Source of the DNA: Alphaproteobacteria bacterium
GTDB taxonomy: Bacteria > Pseudomonadota > Alphaproteobacteria > UBA828
DNA length: 64,000 nt
Reading direction: 5' to 3'
NCBI GenBank assembly: GCA_963422645.2
Contig: CAXXVO010000007.1
Location: forward strand, 608,001 to 672,000
Numbering within the stretch: position 1 is the stretch's first letter; every line of letters starts with the position of its first letter. Made by a program: the position numbers and the translations under genes. A model generated the notes under the pieces. That model saw only the letters and a list, made by a program, of their open reading frames with translations. It was not told the origin of the DNA and made no database searches. Below are positions 22,311 to 30,200 of the stretch, piece after piece.

Positions 22311-24621
22311 GTTCCTCGACCTCAACGGCGGCACCATCCGCGACACCCAGGGCAATAACTTCGTGCCTGAGACCATCCCGGCGCAGCAATTCACCAAGCA
22401 CCGGGTGCGCGGCGGGTTGCACGCCATGCGGCTCGAGGTGTCCGGCTCGGCGCGCGAGGGCGAGCCCTTCGAGATCCGGGTAGTCCGCAACGGCGGCTTC
22501 GAGGAGGTGGCGGTGGCCGGGGTTGGCGTGGCCGACAGTGCCCTGCCGCACGAAAAGCCTTCGTTCCACTACGCGGTGAACGGGCCCGGCCGTTACCAGT
22601 TCGACTTCGATCACGGGGCGGCGAACGAGCCCGGCGTGCGGGTCTCGACGCGCACCGTGACGCCGATCGGGGACGGCGTTGCCGACGCGTCGCGCACACT
22701 GACGATACGGCTGACCGGGACCGACGCGGGCTTCCATCTGACGCCCCCCCTTGGCGACTATCGGGCCTGGTACCTGGCCGAAGGGCCGCTGGAGGTCACG
22801 GTGCCGGTGATCGACACCGGGCTGTCGCTGGGCGAGGCGGGTTTCCGGGTCCACGGGGCCTCGGTACGCGAGGCACCGGGTGCGAAGCTCGCCTTCAAGG
22901 TCAGCCTGTCGCCCCACAGCGAAGCACCGGTGACGGTGGACTACCGGACCGGAGAAGACCCGCCCAACGGGTCCAAGGCGGTCGCGGGGGAAGACTATGT
23001 GGCCACGAGCGGCACGCTGACCTTCGAGGCCGGCGAGACCCTGAAGACCGTCGAGGTGGAGGTGCTCGCCGACGATCATGACGAGGGCTTCGAGACCATG
23101 CGGCTTTTCCTGTCGAACGCGCAGGGCGCGCGCATCGATGGTGCTTCGGGGCTCGGCGTCATCAAGAATACCGGACCGATCCCGAAGGCTTGGCTGGGGC
23201 GCTTCGGGCGCACGGTGGCCGAGCAGGTGCTAGGCGCGGTCGAGAGCCGGGTGCGGGCAACGCGGCAGCCCGGCATCGAGATGACGCTCGCCGGCCAACG
23301 GGTCGGTGGCCAAGCACCGCAGGAAGCTTCACCCGCGCAACGCGATTCAGCCTGGCAAGAGCACGCCGGCCCCACGTCCCTGGCGTCGCGCGGCGTGACG
23401 CAGGGCGACCTGCTGAGCGGCACCTCCTTCGCAGTCACCGCGGAAACCGGGCAGCACGGGTATGCCACCCTCTGGGGACGCGCCGCCGTTTCCCGCTTCG
23501 ACGGCCGCGAGGGCGACCTCACGCTCGACGGCGAGGTCTCGAGCGCCATGATCGGCGTCGACTGGGCCCGTGAGAACTGGACCGCCGGTCTGATCGTCTC
23601 GCGCAGCGCCGGCGATGGCGGCTACGTCGGCCACAGCAAGGGCCGGGTGGAAGCCACGTTGACGGGCCTCTATCCTTGGGGGCGCCTTGCGCTCTCCGAG
23701 CGGGTGGACGCATGGGGCGCCGCCGGTTACGGCACGGGCGAGCTTTCCGTGACGCCGAAGAAGCCGGGGACGGACGAGGACGGCGCCACGATCCGCACCG
23801 ATCTGGACCTGCGCATGGCGGCGGCCGGGCTACGCGGAAGCCTGCTGGACGGCACCGAGGACGGCCTCACTCTGGCCGCCAAGACCGACGCGCTGATCGT
23901 GCAGACCGCGTCCGACGCGGGCCGCGGGACGGACGGCGGCAACCTGGCTGCAGCCCGGGCCACGGTAACCCGGCTGCGTCTCGGCCTAGAAGGGTCGCAG
24001 CCGATACCGCTCGAGGGCGGTGCGAGCCTGACTCCCTCCGTCGAGATCGGCGTGCGTCATGACGGCGGCGATGCCGAGACCGGGTTCGGCATCAACCTCG
24101 GCGGCGGGTTCGCCTGGTCCGATCCGGAGAGCGGGCTGGTCGCGGAGCTGCGCGGACATGCGCTTCTCACTCACGAAACAGAGGGCTTCCGCGAGCGCGG
24201 CGTTTCCGCCTCGCTCACCTGGGACCCGAAGCCGTCCTCGGCGCTCGGCCCGACGGCGACGCTGACCCAGACGGTCGGCGACCCGGCCTCTGGCGGTGCT
24301 GATGCGTTGCTGGCGCAGGGGGCGCTGACGGGCCTCGCGGCGCAGTCCGGCTCAGAGTTGGACGGTGAGGGCGACCTGCAGCATCGCCGGCTGGAAGCAA
24401 GGTTCGGCTATGGCTTCCCGGCCTGGGGCGGCCGCTTCGCGTCGGTTCCCGAGGTCGGCCTCGGCCTCTCCGACACCGGCCGGGAGTACATCCTGGGCTG
24501 GCGATTGGCGAGCGACGGGCCCGGCGCGCTCCAGCTGTCGACAGAGGCGCGTCGAATCGAGAGCAAGGGCAGCGGCCCGGTGGAGCACCGCATCGGCGCC
24601 CGCCTCTCGGCCCGGTGGTAG
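22311..24621 (+). pseudogene. Calx-beta plus autotransporter beta-barrel, C-terminal part of the interrupted gene
   Basis: VTVDYRT...AGEDYVATSGTLTFEAGET Calx-beta motif; AWLGRFGRTVA...GVRHDGGDAETG barrel; terminal W. Confidence 0.85.
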
Positions 24622-24622
24622 C

Positions 24623-24646
24623 CGGAAGACGGCGCGTCGTCTTCTG
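24623..24646 (+). terminator. hairpin after the autotransporter stop
   Basis: CGGAAGACG...CGTCTTCTG stem. Confidence 0.4.
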
Positions 24647-24842
24647 ACGTGCTCCGGAGAGAGGCGCGGGCTGTGAACGAGGTGAGAGATGCGGGCGAGA
24701 GCGTTTCCGTTTCACACGGAAACACGCACCTTCGGTGCTAAGTAGCTGATTCGATTGCGATGGTCTTCCGTTTCTATTGACACCGGGCGCGGAATTCAAG
24801 CCGATTCCGCACCTCGCTGCAACAGATCGGAGACGCGCAATC

Positions 24843-25096
24843 ATGCCAGCCATCCGCCTCACCCAGCGAAGAGTCGACGCTCTTCGGCCCCGCCCCAAGG
24901 TGCGTGATATCCGGGACGCCGAACTGAAGGGGTACGGCGTCCGGGTCATGCCCTCCGGCGCCAGGCGCTACTTCATCCACAGCCAGCACAGGGGCAAGCG
25001 GGTCTGGAAGATCATAGGCGACGCGGCGACGATCACCGAGCCCGAGGCGCGGGCCAGGGCCAGGTCGATGCTCGCCGCGCTGCGCGACGGCCGGGA
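24843..25096 (+). pseudogene. tyrosine-integrase Arm DNA-binding domain (DUF4102-like) stub
   Basis: LTQRRVDALRP...RDAELKGYGVRVMPSGAR...IG...EARARA; truncated and joined to intron RT sequence. Confidence 0.75.
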
Positions 25097-25548
25097 GACC
25101 TGCACAACCGCGTGCACTCGGGAGCGTACCGGGCGACGCCATCACGGCGGGTGAACATCCCGAAGCCGGATGGCGGCACACGACCGCTCGGCGTCGCGGC
25201 CATCGAGGACAAGATCGTCCAGAAGGCGGTGACGGAGATAATCCTGACGCCGATTTACGATGCGGAGTTGCTGGGGTTCAGCTACGGGTTCCGGCCCGGG
25301 CGGAGGGCGCTCGACGCGCTCGACGCGCTTGCGGTTGGGATCGGAAGGCGCAAGATCGACTGGGTGGTCGATTGTGACATCCGGGCGTTCTTCGACACTG
25401 TGTCCCGAGATTGGCTGGTCCGGTTTCTGGAGCACAAGATCGGGGACAAGCGGATCATCAGGCTGATCATCAAGTGGTTGAACGCCGGCGTCATGGAAGC
25501 TGGCGAGTGGCGGGACGATCTGCGGGGGACGCCGCAAGGCTCGGTGAT
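25097..25548 (+). pseudogene. ltrA: group II intron RT/maturase, N-terminal fragment (RT1-RT4)
   Basis: IPKPDGGTRPLG, EDKIVQ, SYGFRPGR, DIRAFFD and GTPQGSV motifs. Confidence 0.9.
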
Positions 25549-25614
25549 GACGCCCTGAACGCAAAAGGTAACTTCCGCTTCGAACGTCAGATTGTGGAAT
25601 GGCGAGACCGTCCC

Positions 25615-25644
25615 TTGACTGACTTGCGCCGCAAACGGTAATAT
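25615..25644 (+). promoter_or_regulatory. sigma70-like promoter of the recombinase element
   Basis: TTGACT-N18-TAATAT just upstream of the first ORF. Confidence 0.6.
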
Positions 25645-25655
25645 TCTTATGGCAA

Positions 25656-25985
25656 ATGATCCGGTCAACAAGATCCCAGAAGGTCGAGCGGCTCAATGCC
25701 GCCTACACGCTGCTCGCCCAGGGCGCCACGGCGAGCGAAGCCGTGGCACGGCTGTCGCAGCGCTTCGGGCTGTCGCAGCGTCAGTCCTATCGCTACGTCC
25801 AGGACGCGCGCGCCATGGGCCAGCCGGCCGAGCCGACCGAAGAGCTGATCCCGATCACCATCAAGATTCCAGGCACTCTGGCGGAGACCTTGCGAGCCCA
25901 CGCCAGGAGCAGCGGCCACTCCATCGGGGAGATCGTCGCGCGGGCGCTGAGACGCTTTTTATCGGACGCGGATCGGCATGGCTGA
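25656..25985 (+). CDS. small DNA-binding protein (HTH-like N-terminus, ribbon-helix-helix-like C-terminus)
   Basis: FGLSQRQSYRYV and ITIKIPGTLAETLR...SIGEIVARAL; overlaps the next ORF. Confidence 0.7.
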   Translation: MIRSTRSQKVERLNAAYTLLAQGATASEAVARLSQRFGLSQRQSYRYVQDARAMGQPAEPTEELIPITIKIPGTLAETLRAHARSSGHSIGEIVARALRRFLSDADRHG

Positions 25986-26184
25986 ACGTCGCTTGGGCGC
26001 TCGGCCCACGGTTCACCTCGCTTATGCCTTCGATCGTCTGCTCGACGCCAAACTCCACAACGCCTACGCGATCCTGGTGCCCGATCAAACTCACAAAATC
26101 CCGGTCCGAGCGCAGGACATAGGAGACGACCATGAAGATCGCAGCCATTTACGCGCGGGTCTCCGGCGAGCGGCAGAGAGATGA
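25978..26184 (+). CDS. small hypothetical protein, possible directionality factor
   Basis: 68 aa; overlaps both the upstream ORF and the recombinase start; function inferred from position only. Confidence 0.5.
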   Translation: MAERRLGARPTVHLAYAFDRLLDAKLHNAYAILVPDQTHKIPVRAQDIGDDHEDRSHLRAGLRRAAER

Positions 26185-27802
26185 CAACACGATAGCGAGC
26201 CAGACCGAGGCCCTGATCGCCTACGCCGAGGACCACGGTTACAGCGTCGCGCCCGACATGATCATTGAAGATGACGGCTATACCGGCGCCGTTCTCGAAC
26301 GCCCGGGGCTCGAGCGGGTCAGGGATCTCGCCGCGGAAGGGCGCATCGACACGGTGCTGGTCCATGCCCCGGACCGTATGAGCCGGCGCTATGCCTACCA
26401 GGTTCTGATCATCGAGGAGCTGGCCCGTCAGGGCGTCGAGACCGTGTTCTTGAGAGCGCCGTCGATGGAAACCCCGGAAGATCATCTGCTCGTCCAGTTC
26501 CAGGGCATGATTGCGGAATACGAGCGCGCGCAAATCCTGGAGCGTTCCCGGCGCGGCAAGCGACATCGGGCGCGACGCGGCGAAATCGCCGTCCTCGGCG
26601 GCGCGCCCTATGGCTACCGCTACCACAAGAAAACCCCGGACAGCGATGCGTTCTACGAAATCGTCGAGCCGCAGGCGTCGGTGGTTCGCGAGGTTTACCG
26701 CTGCTACACCTGCGATCACATGAGCATCGGCGCGATCACCTGCAGGCTCAATGAGCGCGCGGTACCCACCTCCACCGGGCGCTCGCGCTGGGAACGCTCG
26801 ACGGTGTGGGCGATGCTCCGCAATCCGGCGTACAAGGGGAAAGCCTGTTTCGGCAAGACCCGCCAGATGCCGCGTAAATGTGTGACACGTCCTCTGCGCC
26901 TGCGCCGCGGCGTGGCCAGCGGCACGACCGGCGGTCACGAAAAACCGCGTGAGGAGTGGATCGAGATCCCGGTGCCGGCGATCGTCAGCGAAGAGACCTT
27001 CGCCCTGGCCGAAGAGCGGCTGGAGATGAACAAGATCCACGCGCCGCGTCGCACGAAGACGCCCAGCGTGCTCCAGGGACTGGTCTCGTGCGGCAAATGC
27101 GGCTACGCGCTGTCTCGCACATCGGCCCAGACGAGTGCCCGCAAGATCTCCTATTATCGCTGCCTGGGTTCTGACTCTTGGCGCCATCTCAACGGACCGG
27201 TGTGCGACAGTCGGCCGGTGCGCCAGGACTTGCTCGATGACGTCGTCTGGGGCGAAGTGGTCCGCCTGCTCGAGGATCCAGCACTGATCGGCGCCGAGAT
27301 CGACCGGCGACTACAGGCGGCCCGCGCTTCCGATCCAAACCAGCAGCGCGAGAACGACCTGCGGCACCGTCTGATCCGGGTCCGAAAAAGCATCGACCGC
27401 CTGGTCAACGCCTATCAGGAGGAGTTGATTACAATCGATGAACTGCGCGACAGAACGTCCGAGCTCCGTCGTCAGGATCAGGCTCTGAATCGCGAACTGC
27501 AATCCGCCGTCGATCGGGCGAAGGATCGCGAGACCTATCTCCGGCTCGCCGAGACGCTGACCGGCTTTCTGGCGCGGCTGCACTCGTCCGCCGAAACCCT
27601 GGACATCGCCGAACGGCAGCGCATCGTCCGGCTCATCGTGAAGGAGGTGTTGGTCACCGAGGACAAAATCACCATTCGCCATTCAATCCCAATCTCGGGA
27701 TCGCCAGGCGGCGGTCCAGACCCGTCGAAACCCGGCAACCACAGCACCGAAGGCGAAGGTTGCCTTTTGCGTTCAGGGCGTCATTTCACCGATCCTGGCT
27801 AA
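26132..27802 (+). CDS. large serine recombinase (resolvase, recombinase, Zn ribbon and coiled-coil domains)
   Basis: YARVS, DDGYTG, DRMSR, PYGY and CGKCG...YYRC motifs; RBS AGGAG; stop lies outside the element. Confidence 0.95.
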   Translation: MKIAAIYARVSGERQRDDNTIASQTEALIAYAEDHGYSVAPDMIIEDDGYTGAVLERPGLERVRDLAAEGRIDTVLVHAPDRMSRRYAYQVLIIEELARQGVETVFLRAPSMETPEDHLLVQFQGMIAEYERAQILERSRRGKRHRARRGEIAVLGGAPYGYRYHKKTPDSDAFYEIVEPQASVVREVYRCYTCDHMSIGAITCRLNERAVPTSTGRSRWERSTVWAMLRNPAYKGKACFGKTRQMPRKCVTRPLRLRRGVASGTTGGHEKPREEWIEIPVPAIVSEETFALAEERLEMNKIHAPRRTKTPSVLQGLVSCGKCGYALSRTSAQTSARKISYYRCLGSDSWRHLNGPVCDSRPVRQDLLDDVVWGEVVRLLEDPALIGAEIDRRLQAARASDPNQQRENDLRHRLIRVRKSIDRLVNAYQEELITIDELRDRTSELRRQDQALNRELQSAVDRAKDRETYLRLAETLTGFLARLHSSAETLDIAERQRIVRLIVKEVLVTEDKITIRHSIPISGSPGGGPDPSKPGNHSTEGEGCLLRSGRHFTDPG

Positions 27803-28487
27803 CATCTACCTGCACTATGTCCTTGATCTCTGGTTCCAGCGGAAGTGGCGCAACCACGAGGTCGGAGGCGACACGATTATCGTGCGCTACGCCGACGACT
27901 TCGTGGTGGGCTTCCAGCACAAGCGGGATGCGGAGCGTTTTCTGAACGCCATGAAGGAGCGGTTCGGAGGTTTCGGACTGGACCTGCACCCCGACAAGAC
28001 CCGGCTCATCGAGTTCGGGCGGTTTGCCAGTGAGCGCCGCCGGGAACGAGGACAGGGTAAGCCGGAGGCCTTCGACTTTCTGGGCTTCACGCACTACTGC
28101 GCGGAGACCGGACAGGGACGGTTCCAGCTGGGGCGCAAGCCGGAGGCGAAGCGGATGGCACGCACTCTGAAACGGCTCAAGGAGGCGCTACGCAGGCGGA
28201 TGCATCACAAAGCTGTGGTCACGGCAAAATGGCTGGGAAAGGTGGTCGACGGATGGCTGAACTATTACGCCGTTCCAACCAGCTTCCTATCTCTAAGCCG
28301 ATTTGCCGATCGCCTGACGCGGCTGTGGCTGCGATGCTTGCGCCGCAGATCGCAGAAGGACCGCTTCTCATTGGCCAGCCTCATGGCCCTCAGAGGGGCA
28401 CACTGGCCCAAGCTCGAAATCCGACACCCGTGGCCGAGCCAACGACTCGCCGTCAGCACAACCCAAGGGAGGAGCCGGATGCCTTAG
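27785..28487 (+). pseudogene. ltrA: group II intron RT/maturase, C-terminal fragment (YADD, domain X, no endonuclease)
   Basis: SPILANIYLH, RYADDF, LHPDKT, FDFLGF and GWLNYY motifs. Confidence 0.9.
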
Positions 28488-28543
28488 CGGGTATGTCCGG
28501 ATCCGTGCGGGGGGTCCCCAGCAATGGGGATCCCTACCGCGAT
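28472..28543 (+). ncRNA. group II intron domains V and VI
   Basis: GAGCCGGATG...TGTCCGGATC DV with AGC triad; DVI stem ending CCCTACCGCGAT. Confidence 0.85.
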
Positions 28544-28751
28544 CAACAGCCGGCGGCCGGCCGCGGCCATCCTTCAAGTGACAGCGCTGGCAGGCGCGCG
28601 CGTTGAAGAGGGGTCCGAGACCGTCCGACGACGTGGTCGAGCTCGGCGCCGAGACCCAGATCTTCCTGAAGATCCCGTTGCCGACCCTGAAGTCGCGTTC
28701 GCGCTTGAAAGGCATGTTGGCGGAGGGATGCGAGAACGCGTTCCGGTTCAC
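28544..28751 (-). pseudogene. di-heme oxidoreductase (DHOR/DUF1111-like) N-terminal fragment
   Basis: AFSHPSAN...GNGIFRKIWV...DGLGPLFNARACQRCHLKDGRG; cut at the intron 3' end. Confidence 0.8.
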
Positions 28752-29586
28752 CGCGACGTCCGAGCGCGACGTGCTCTCACACTATGCGGATCTGGCGCAC
28801 GCCGTGTACGAGGATTCGCTGATCGCAGCCCGCGATCTACAAGGCGCGGTGAACCGGTTCATCGCCGACCCGATCGAGGCAAATATGTCGGCGGCGCGGG
28901 ATACCTGGCGGGCGGCGCGCGTCCCCTACCAGCAGAGCGAGGTCTACCGCTTCGGCAACGCCGTCGCCGACGACTGGGAAGGCAAGGTGAACGCCTGGCC
29001 GCTCGACGAAGGCCTCATCGACTACGTGGCGGCGAGCTACGGCGCGGAGTCGGAGGAGAATCCCGGCTATCGCGCCAACATCGTCGCCAGCCCGAGCTTC
29101 ACCTTCTCGGGCGAATTGATCGACGCGGGGAGCATCACCAAGGAGCTGCTCGCGGACACGTTGCATGAGCTTGGCGGCGTCGAGGCCAACGTGGCGACCG
29201 GCTACCATGCCGTCGAGTTTCTGCTCTGGGGCCAGGACCTGAACGGCACCTGCACCGGCGCGGGTGCGAGGCCTGCCAGCGACTTCGATCCGGCCAACTG
29301 CTCATGGGGCAACTGCGAGCGCCGCGCCGCCTACCTGCAGACGGCCACCGATCTGCTGATCGATGACCTCGAGTGGATGACCGCCCAGTGGGCACCGGGC
29401 GGCGAGGCCTACGACTAGCAAATCGGCGAGGGGAATGCGGCAGGCAACGCGAGGGTGCAGGCCGCGATCGATGCGCTGACCGCGCAGACGAGCGCGATCG
29501 AGGGCGCGGTCGCGGCGCTCAACCTCGCTTTGATCGACTTCGAGGGCTCGGACAGCCTCGACGACCCCGAGGCCGTCTTCGAGTAA
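28752..29586 (+). pseudogene. imelysin (IrpA-like) pseudogene
   Basis: VNAWPLDEGLIDYV, TGYHAVEFLLWGQD and EGSDSLDDPEAVF; no signal peptide; in-frame TAG at 29416-29418; probable internal deletion. Confidence 0.85.
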
Positions 29587-29748
29587 GCGCCTTCCCGGCG
29601 GTCTGCCGCGCCAAACGACGCAGCAGACCGGGGCCGCCCCGCTCGACCCCCCGCGGGGCGGCCCTCGAGCCGGCGCATTGGCCGGCGCCGGGGTGCGCGC
29701 ATCTTGGTTCGGTAGCGACCCACCCTCACCAGCACGGAGAGGCGAGCC

Positions 29749-30200
29749 ATGTGCGAACCTTGCGTCGTTCCGCCCAAGCAGAGCGGGAGCCAGCGCCACA
29801 AGCTGTGGGAGATCCGGCCGGACCTGCGTTGCACCATTATCGGCACCTGCCTCAGCTATGCCGATCTGCTCAAGATCGGCCGCAAGGCCGGCTTCGCGCC
29901 GAGCGAAACGGCCACCGAATACGAGATGCATAACTATTTCGTGCACCGCGCCGAGGAGCCGGACCGGCTCGCCCAGCTGATGCACAAGGCGCTGGACGCC
30001 AAGTACCGGGCCGGCATTCACGCCTGCCAGCAGGCGCAGTGCGTGGCAGATCTGGAGGAATTCTGGTCGGACGCTCTCGCCAAGGGCGATATCCCCGGGC
30101 CTACTGGGCGTTGATGACGCACCCCCTGACCTCGGAAGCGCTGCTGGTCCGCGCCTTCTGCCACACGGATGCGCTCTCGCACTTTATCGCTCACGGCAGC
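29749..30200 (+). pseudogene. DUF2325-type protein N-terminal fragment, frameshifted
   Basis: KLWEI...CTIIGTCLS...GDIPG then (A)YWALMTHP in another frame at about 30100; truncated; end approximate. Confidence 0.6.

Follow-up and report, generated by a model that had tools for sequence, protein, structure and literature searches.

A large serine recombinase gene crossed by its own attachment site in an element that interrupts group II intron reverse transcriptase genes

What protein does a mobile element encode when the crossover site of its recombinase lies inside the recombinase gene itself? This question is raised by a 2.2 kb element in a 64,000-nucleotide stretch of contig CAXXVO010000007.1 from an alphaproteobacterial genome assembly (GCA_963422645.2). 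The whole stretch is called the window, and coordinates without a contig handle refer to it. The element interrupts a reverse transcriptase (RT) gene of the group II intron type and carries the gene of a large serine recombinase (LSR), the open reading frame (ORF) of which runs through the right end of the element into the RT gene. A conserved C-terminal module, here called the tail, is cut off from the rest of the gene by the crossover site, and the integrated and joined states of the element encode different proteins. It is probable that this is an LSR element whose gene is cut by its own crossover site and is full-length only when the two ends are joined, and very likely that the split-gene anatomy is under selection. 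That directionality is the specific purpose of the tail is proposed only tentatively.

The recombinase frame across the element ends

The intact copy of the element occupies 25549-27782, with an AT dinucleotide on either side. The two parts of the RT gene (25112-25546 and 27783-28487) share one frame across the empty site, and the split falls between ...GTPQGSV and ISPILANIYL.... An RNA contig (run X17) jumps from 25546 to 27783 with a 2-nucleotide ambiguity and represents the empty RT site, so that the element boundaries are fixed. LSR transposons of the Tn4451/Tn5397 kind have the same 2-nucleotide core at both ends and an empty site with one copy of it, which agrees with the AT/AT cores and the 2-nucleotide ambiguity seen here. 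The terminal inverted repeats, counted with the cores (25547-25578 and 27753-27784), are 32 nucleotides long and 91% complementary. A preliminary description of the locus had predicted a palindromic attachment (att) site of the circle centred on a symmetric AT core. For the window this stands, as the inner 20 nucleotides of both arms and the AT core are predicted to form a perfect 42-bp palindrome once joined. The AT core itself is not general, since only 23 of 54 flank pairs of relatives have AT/AT, and the others have GT, GC, AC, AG, or unequal left and right cores. The features on which the argument rests are as follows.

25112-25546, + strand: 5' part of the RT gene, group II intron type (Pfam RVT_1, E 2e-15), ending ...GTPQGSV
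25547-25548, no strand: left AT crossover dinucleotide; AT borders both arms
25549-25578, no strand: left terminal inverted repeat (P' arm), containing the conserved motif ACGCAAAAGGTAAC
25549-25641, + strand: tail segment, conserved 30-residue recombinase tail and TAA, readable only with the right end joined to the left
25615-25644, + strand: predicted sigma-70-like promoter for ORF1, within tail codons (TTGACT, 18 nucleotides, TAATAT)
26132-27802, + strand: LSR ORF in the integrated state, 556 residues, the last six codons RT-derived
27753-27782, no strand: right terminal inverted repeat (P arm), translated as ...GEGCLLRSGR
27783-27784, no strand: right AT crossover dinucleotide; AT borders both arms; placed by the empty-site contig
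27783-28487, + strand: 3' part of the RT gene (ISPILANIYL..., maturase domain; Pfam RVT_1 and GIIM)

The product of the LSR ORF has the N-terminal catalytic domain, the recombinase domain, and the zinc beta-ribbon in the order typical of LSRs (Pfam Resolvase PF00239, 7.5e-32; Recombinase PF07508, 3.4e-20; Zn_ribbon_recom PF13408, 4.4e-10). Against NCBIfam the best matches are CcrB, CcrC, and XisF, all far under their cut-offs. An AlphaFold2 model of a homologue (protein P0001, introduced below) places long helices at residues 365-502, after the zinc ribbon, with a predicted local distance difference test (pLDDT) score of about 70-94; they are a candidate for the coiled-coil insertion of LSRs.

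The preliminary description had placed the att site inside the recombinase ORF and had the stop codon come from the RT gene, and both statements hold. The ORF at 26132-27802 crosses the right repeat and the AT core without meeting a stop inside the element. The right repeat is translated as ...CLLRSGRH, and the ORF then ends in ...FTDPG*, 20 nucleotides into the RT gene, its final 18 nucleotides (27785-27802) being RT gene sequence. The segment 27763-27802 is made up of the inner part of the right repeat and these first 18 nucleotides of the interrupted gene. The left end, in the phase in which the LSR frame would arrive, reads DALNAKGNFRFERQIVEWRDRPLTDLRRKR and then TAA (25639-25641), 30 codons in all. 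This TAA forms the first three bases of TAATAT, 18 nucleotides after TTGACT, and the tail stop of the predicted circle overlaps a -10-like hexamer just as had been proposed. A promoter scan scored TTGACT-18 nt-TAATAT at 9 of 12 matches and found 2 sites, against 0.4 expected from shuffles.

Is the open frame more than chance? A scan of one genome per species gave 521 relatives, of which 79 loci were kept (LSR 57-88% identical). The repeat motif, conserved throughout, allowed both ends to be placed in 63 loci, with element lengths of 2216-2303 bp. Among 47 distinct left ends the tail frame is open for at least 25 codons in 44, whereas the other two forward frames are open in 10 and 1. Among 48 distinct right ends the LSR frame has a stop in the last 120 nucleotides once, and the other frames have one in 20 and 36. 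Therefore, the open frame exceeds chance expectation at both ends. An in-frame start codon is not conserved in the left end (11 of 47 have any start-type codon in codons 1-15), hence the tail codons are consistently translatable only from the LSR gene across a joint.

The predicted circle and the tail were analysed in 62 elements with both ends, namely 61 relatives (57-88% identity) and the window copy, drawn from many phyla. None of the 62 has a stop before the right boundary, where 61 arrive in phase 1. For 52 elements the integrated ORF ends 5 to 377 nucleotides into the flank; the remaining 10 show no stop within the flank examined (400 nucleotides, less where the contig ends). These integrated C-termini are encoded by unrelated flanking sequence. 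In the predicted circle, 57 of the 62 have a tail of about 30 residues with its stop 92-98 nucleotides into the left end (at 95 in 42 elements, 98 in 13, and 92 in 2). Two others stop at 77, and single elements at 80, 59, and 12; the stop at 12 (locus L035) is due to a frame discrepancy inside the LSR gene, the right end of L035 being in the usual frame.

Joined ends also occur in natural DNA. The pattern right arm-core-left arm matched four metagenome contigs, three of which belong to this LSR element family. Contig L096 holds an RT flank, a whole element, the joint, and then a second, diverged copy; its first copy has a contiguous LSR ORF of 609 residues (P0001) that ends in the tail. Contig L094 is a tandem joint and L093 ends in a joint, so at least two of the three junction contigs are tandem copies. 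At E <= 1e-50 the family has at least 7998 clusters, and its members go by the annotation "recombinase family protein" alone. Among the best 120 of these homologues, two, P0001 and P0251, have the tail. In another 111 the repeat-encoded YLLRSG is present, and 2-309 unrelated residues come after it.

Conservation of the tail as protein or as DNA

Tail codons 1-10 coincide with the inverted repeat, and the last nine (22-30) overlap a conserved promoter-like pattern, TTGAYT...GGTAAT, in the 47 aligned left ends. A coding test must therefore look past conservation at the DNA level. It was made on 33 distinct 30-codon tails, which follow the pattern x-A-x-N-A-K-G-N-F-x-F-[ED]-R-x-[IV]-x-G-W-R-x(4)-L-D-L-R-[RL]-K-[RK]. 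Nonsynonymous and synonymous differences were compared as raw pairwise proportions (pN/pS) over non-independent pairs near saturation (pS about 0.6), so the ratios give a direction only and not a calibrated omega. For codons 11-30 pN/pS is 0.50 in the tail frame, 1.12 and 1.29 in the two remaining forward frames, and 1.01, 0.55, and 1.22 on the reverse strand. The reverse frame with 0.55 has stops in 8 of the 33 tails and has its wobble positions in common with the tail frame. Two blocks of the LSR core, measured in the same crude way, have values of 0.32 and 0.33. Entropy at codon positions 1, 2, and 3 is 0.86, 0.70, and 1.28, the third position being the most variable. F11, R13, R19, D25, and R27 are invariant, and at R27 the arginine is kept despite switches between CGN and AGA codons (CGT 17, AGA 10, CGC 5, CGA 1). 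Insertions and deletions in the tail are multiples of three.

Judged by these patterns, selection maintains the tail of the joined state, and its codons double as the predicted promoter of ORF1. The claim that integrated and joined states encode different C-termini is thus upheld, the joined tail being conserved as protein across 33 distinct sequences. The check that had been suggested, namely whether the left-end frame stays open and conserved in homologs, comes out in favour of the preliminary description, in the 44 of 47 left ends and in two actinobacterial relatives in which the arrangement recurs (see below).

What the tail contributes is a separate matter. It may serve protein stability or expression rather than direction, which we regard as unlikely. 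For stability, the tail would be a degradation or stabilising signal that limits the persistence of the enzyme made from the circle, and there is a precedent in the integration-dependent immunity of mycobacteriophage BPs, where a C-terminal degradation tag is lost on integration. For expression, the tail stop would couple translation of ORF1 to that of the recombinase on transcripts running round the circle; it sits 14 nucleotides ahead of the ORF1 ATG at 25656. The flank adds 2 to 509 residues to integrated forms, and that such extensions are tolerated, or at least not selected against, is in keeping with both variants. The tail has no testable resemblance to a known tag, and conservation at the protein level speaks against a purely translational role; no computed result separates an effect on stability or expression from one on directionality.

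Less probable again is that the read-through is incidental, with the functional protein ending at ...IRHSIP and the open frame and tail reflecting only DNA constraints on the left end, such as recombinase binding sites, a second ACGCAAA-GGTAA-like motif 70 nucleotides inward, and the promoter. The overlap of the tail with the inverted repeat and the TTGAYT...GGTAAT promoter would be explained in this way, as would the resemblance of the tail end to the repeat motif (L039 and L053 have two motif matches 70 nucleotides apart). In addition, the repeat-encoded codons have pN/pS of 0.76-0.93 in all frames, which is no coding signature and is what would be expected if DNA recognition dominates there, and the variable linker ahead of the tail is predicted to be disordered. 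However, codons 11-21, which lie between repeat and promoter, still have pN/pS of 0.51, the two remaining forward frames having 1.00 and 1.19. Nor would DNA constraints account for arginines that survive CGN/AGA switches, for indels in threes that leave stops at 92, 95, or 98, or for the complete lack of stops before the boundary in 62 elements, despite a linker free in length and sequence.

It is very improbable that the joined ORFs are assembly artefacts and that the element never forms a circle or tandem: palindromic repeats do mislead assemblers, only three contigs and two proteins carry the junction, and no junction contig was seen in four sequencing runs, but the junction words span both arms and the core while integrated copies lack such words, L096 joins RT flank, whole element, junction, and diverged second copy, the empty RT site exists with its 2-nucleotide ambiguity, and five near-identical copies at different sites in this genome show recent movement.

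Several observations also weigh against a selected tail that completes the enzyme. Integrated copies must still excise, as the element moves, so the tail is not essential for all activity. Part of its conservation must lie at the DNA level, because it overlaps two DNA signals, and the codons within the repeat lack a coding signature; the pN/pS values carry the limits stated above and are not tree-based. No right-to-left joint was seen in four public runs, which are kept as contigs only; contigs drop rare forms, and absence of the joint therefore cannot be shown from them. In the AlphaFold2 model of P0001 the linker (residues 522-589) is disordered and the tail is of low confidence, with a short strand at 590-595 (pLDDT about 57) and values under 50 beyond it, and only two rows of the alignment used for folding covered the tail.

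Searches with the tail itself gave the following. The C-terminal 44 residues of P0001, used in a word-based search, matched P0001 alone. A tail profile run against 1.84 billion representatives had 397 matches at E <= 0.001; nearly all of the best 150 end within one residue of the C-terminus, and all but one of these are shorter than 260 residues. The 16 matches that were read are gene-finder fusions of flank-derived sequence to the tail, with no recombinases among them, and for this reason the search neither found nor excluded a family with an unsplit gene. A Protein Atlas look-up of the tail had a best score of 0.76, under the lead level. An alignment of whole proteins mixed with 30-residue tail fragments was discarded, since it set the fragments wrongly at about residues 240-256. 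In it, MAFFT put them after the conserved NPAYKG motif of the recombinase domain (P0001 about 233-260), where P0001 has an A.KG..F...R......RPL.LRR-like segment and AlphaFold2 models 242-270 as disordered; the likeness may be a chance similarity of basic segments.

Targets, sister copies and accessory genes

Hosts of the family include Alpha- and Gammaproteobacteria, Acidobacteriota, Binatia, Gemmatimonadota, one spirochaete metagenome-assembled genome, and others, often with many copies per genome. The flank that recurs encodes GTPQGG(V)/(I)SPLLAN, a motif of group II intron RT genes. The preliminary description had raised the possibility of insertion in either orientation and had asked for a tabulation in RT genes. 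With a simple pattern applied to 54 non-redundant flank pairs, the RT 5' part lies at the left (forward) in 24 and at the right (reverse) in 15, so both orientations occur; RT 3' sequence is on both sides in 4 and RT 5' sequence on both sides in 1, and 10 are unclassified. Mismatched flanks were noted for copy C of this genome (C8:727381-733151, described below) and for loci L033, L045, L083, L089, and L035. They are as expected if copies recombine with one another, giving inversions or deletions, or if the element flips in place.

The arrangement extends beyond the close relatives. Plasmid relatives in Rhodococcus and Streptomyces (about 49-50% identity) keep phase 1 with no internal stop and have tails of 30 and 34 codons, of which the first half is recognisable. 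They carry the repeat variant ACGCAATGGGCAAC and share the RT target of the close relatives, with insertion in both orientations. The cultured strain Bradyrhizobium elkanii USDA 76 has a plasmid-borne copy with a typical tail. That copy lies in an RT gene which is in turn nested in an IS66 transposase gene, and its annotation says no more than "recombinase family protein".

Five near-identical copies (A-E) are present in the genome under study, and their integrated LSR ORFs end after 6 to 509 flank-encoded residues. Copies A (window) and B (contig 6; C6:198685-200918) are uninterrupted. Copy A lies in the RT gene, and copies B, D, and E lie in other genes. Copy C has the RT 5' part at the right in the opposite orientation and an unrelated gene at the left. 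The host gene of copy B has a permease-like product (...AVQGAV / SADGVGNLFSGLMGT...). The insertion sites of B and E at least loosely resemble the RT site, and from the resemblance at copy B the enzyme appears to respond to a pattern in the DNA rather than to RT genes themselves. Copies B, D, and E all have CT as their left core; their right cores are CC, CA, and TT, each one position off CT. A 2-nucleotide staggered exchange that tolerates one mismatch would give this combination: the left-arm strand would keep the donor core from one move to the next, and each target would provide the template for the right core. The unequal cores of relatives would fit the same mismatch-tolerant exchange.

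In copies C, D, and E lies a 1768-bp element of the IS110 insertion sequence family, with tandem copy numbers of 2, 3, and 1, respectively. The arrays at C19:32282-36283, C8:727381-733151, and C10:43074-50612 (loci L011, L012, and L013) hold 1, 2, and 3 copies, respectively. The IS110 copies are identical, lie head-to-tail, encode a 426-residue DEDD transposase, and occupy the same position in all three LSR elements. Such arrays suggest that insertion has recurred at one target, which each insertion restores. The result is a three-level nesting, in which an intron RT gene holds an LSR element that in turn holds an IS110 array. The insertion point and the two small ORFs upstream of the recombinase gene are listed here.

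25656-25985, + strand: ORF1, 109 residues, probable regulator, C-terminal half ribbon-helix-helix (CopG-type)
25978-26184, + strand: ORF2, 68 residues, overlapping the ORF1 end and the recombinase gene start
26098-26099, no strand: IS110 insertion point in window coordinates, in ORF2 and upstream of the recombinase start, after element position 550

ORF1 matches Pfam RHH_1 with E 6e-4, just short of the curated cut-off. It is kept at the same place in nearly all listed relatives and is labelled CopG family in two plasmid records. In the aligned left ends a short TATGTCATATGAC-like palindrome, at 25645-25665 in the window, covers the start of ORF1 in most relatives; it may be an operator for the ribbon-helix-helix protein. 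Because this palindrome spans the start, a leaderless or very short-leader ORF1 mRNA is suggested. ORF2 (about 70 residues in relatives) is found in most listed relatives and has a conserved N-terminal half (MAERR...FDRLL..KL.Q.Y..LVPD). It has no match among Pfam or NCBIfam families and is a candidate accessory or directionality factor.

Around the interrupted RT gene in the window, an Rfam search of 23500-30000 at E <= 0.1 found no RNA family, hence no group II intron ribozyme domain. The RT ORF start at 25112 falls within the usual RT domain, so the host intron may be a fragment.

Proposed mechanism, known systems and significance

How might a gene divided in this way work? The element would insert by a 2-nucleotide staggered exchange into DNA encoding the GTPQGGV/ISPLLAN motif of group II intron RT genes. 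The right part of its gene would supply the catalytic, recombinase, zinc-ribbon, and putative coiled-coil parts with the variable linker, and the left part would supply the conserved basic last 30 codons and the stop, overlapping the predicted ORF1 promoter. The LSR of an integrated copy would thus have a C-terminus set by the flank, with all known domains, the disordered linker, and an arbitrary extension. The full-length protein would be encoded only by an excised circle or by the upstream member of a tandem pair, and the gene arrangement would report the state of the element to its own enzyme. The full-length form would most likely serve or favour integration of the circle, and the scrambled integrated form would keep excision rare or change its direction. 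In its strongest version, somewhat more doubtful than the tentative link to directionality, the family would be the first bacterial system and the first serine recombinase to encode reaction direction in gene topology, the enzyme with the tethered basic tail being able to integrate and the tail-less, flank-extended one only to excise, and that rarely. If this is true, a separate directionality factor would be unnecessary and the palindromic site would explain insertion in both orientations.

The nearest known systems are the SSV-type "suicidal" integrases, which have the recombination site in their own gene so that only the free circle encodes the whole protein; the available part of PMC8371274 describes them as found only in archaea. 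The likeness to the integrases of SSV1, SSV2, pTN3, and pT26-2 is that integration splits the gene at a site within it (same source, same part), and the att site likewise lies within the ORF of this LSR. The differences are considerable. The SSV-type enzymes are archaeal tyrosine recombinases, whereas the element described here encodes an LSR with serine recombinase domains and has bacterial hosts in several phyla. Their split falls within the gene body and may leave the enzyme inactive, as far as the accessible text of PMC8371274 goes, whereas here it removes only a C-terminal 30-residue module behind a flexible linker and leaves all recognised domains intact.

Other elements change expression, and not the protein, with their state. 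The available text of PMC13023037 describes Pcir of ICEclc and P3'end of ICEKp1, in which the circle joins the ends and the integrase is expressed differently from the integrated state. These are large conjugative elements with tyrosine integrases and a transcriptional switch, and they make the same protein in both states.

Among transposons, the clostridial Tn4451/Tn4453 (TnpX) and Tn5397 (TndX) are moved by LSRs, have a circular form, and use a 2-nucleotide exchange. In Tn4451 the circle joint reportedly creates a promoter that changes recombinase expression (Lyras and Rood, 2000), the nearest precedent among serine recombinases for a joint of this kind. The likeness to Tn4451 lies in the LSR, the 2-nucleotide exchange, and a joint with consequences for the recombinase. 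The Tn4451 joint completes a promoter, whereas the joint described here completes a coding sequence. Compared with Tn4451 and Tn5397, the element is 2.2 kb long without cargo, has inverted repeats of about 30 nucleotides, and targets one conserved intron-RT coding motif. Elements of the IS607 family are likewise the size of an insertion sequence and moved by a serine recombinase; their enzymes are small with the DNA-binding domain first, according to the available part of PMC4058570. Membership in IS607 was rejected, as the match to NF033518 reaches 34.8 bits against a cut-off of 110 and covers the catalytic domain only.

The family is therefore seen as a variant of known LSR transposons and self-splitting integrases, of which no description was found in the literature searchable in full text. 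Published full texts gave no account of intron RT genes as the target of an LSR element, or of a serine recombinase whose gene is divided at its own site and completed by circularisation; subscription journals and ISfinder were outside this scope. In an LSR discovery preprint (10.1101/2021.11.05.467528) the terms "reverse transcriptase", "group II", and "inverted repeat" do not occur.

A self-splitting LSR in bacteria bears on the statement, in the available part of PMC8371274, that such integrases are confined to archaea. The family is very abundant and is known in annotation only as a recombinase. Its parasitism of another mobile element, at a single conserved motif, makes it useful for annotation and for studies of conflict between mobile elements.

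LSRs are major tools of genome engineering, and their one-way behaviour normally needs a separate directionality protein. A C-terminus that changes with the state of the element would amount to a compact, self-contained means of sensing "in" versus "out" in a natural LSR family.

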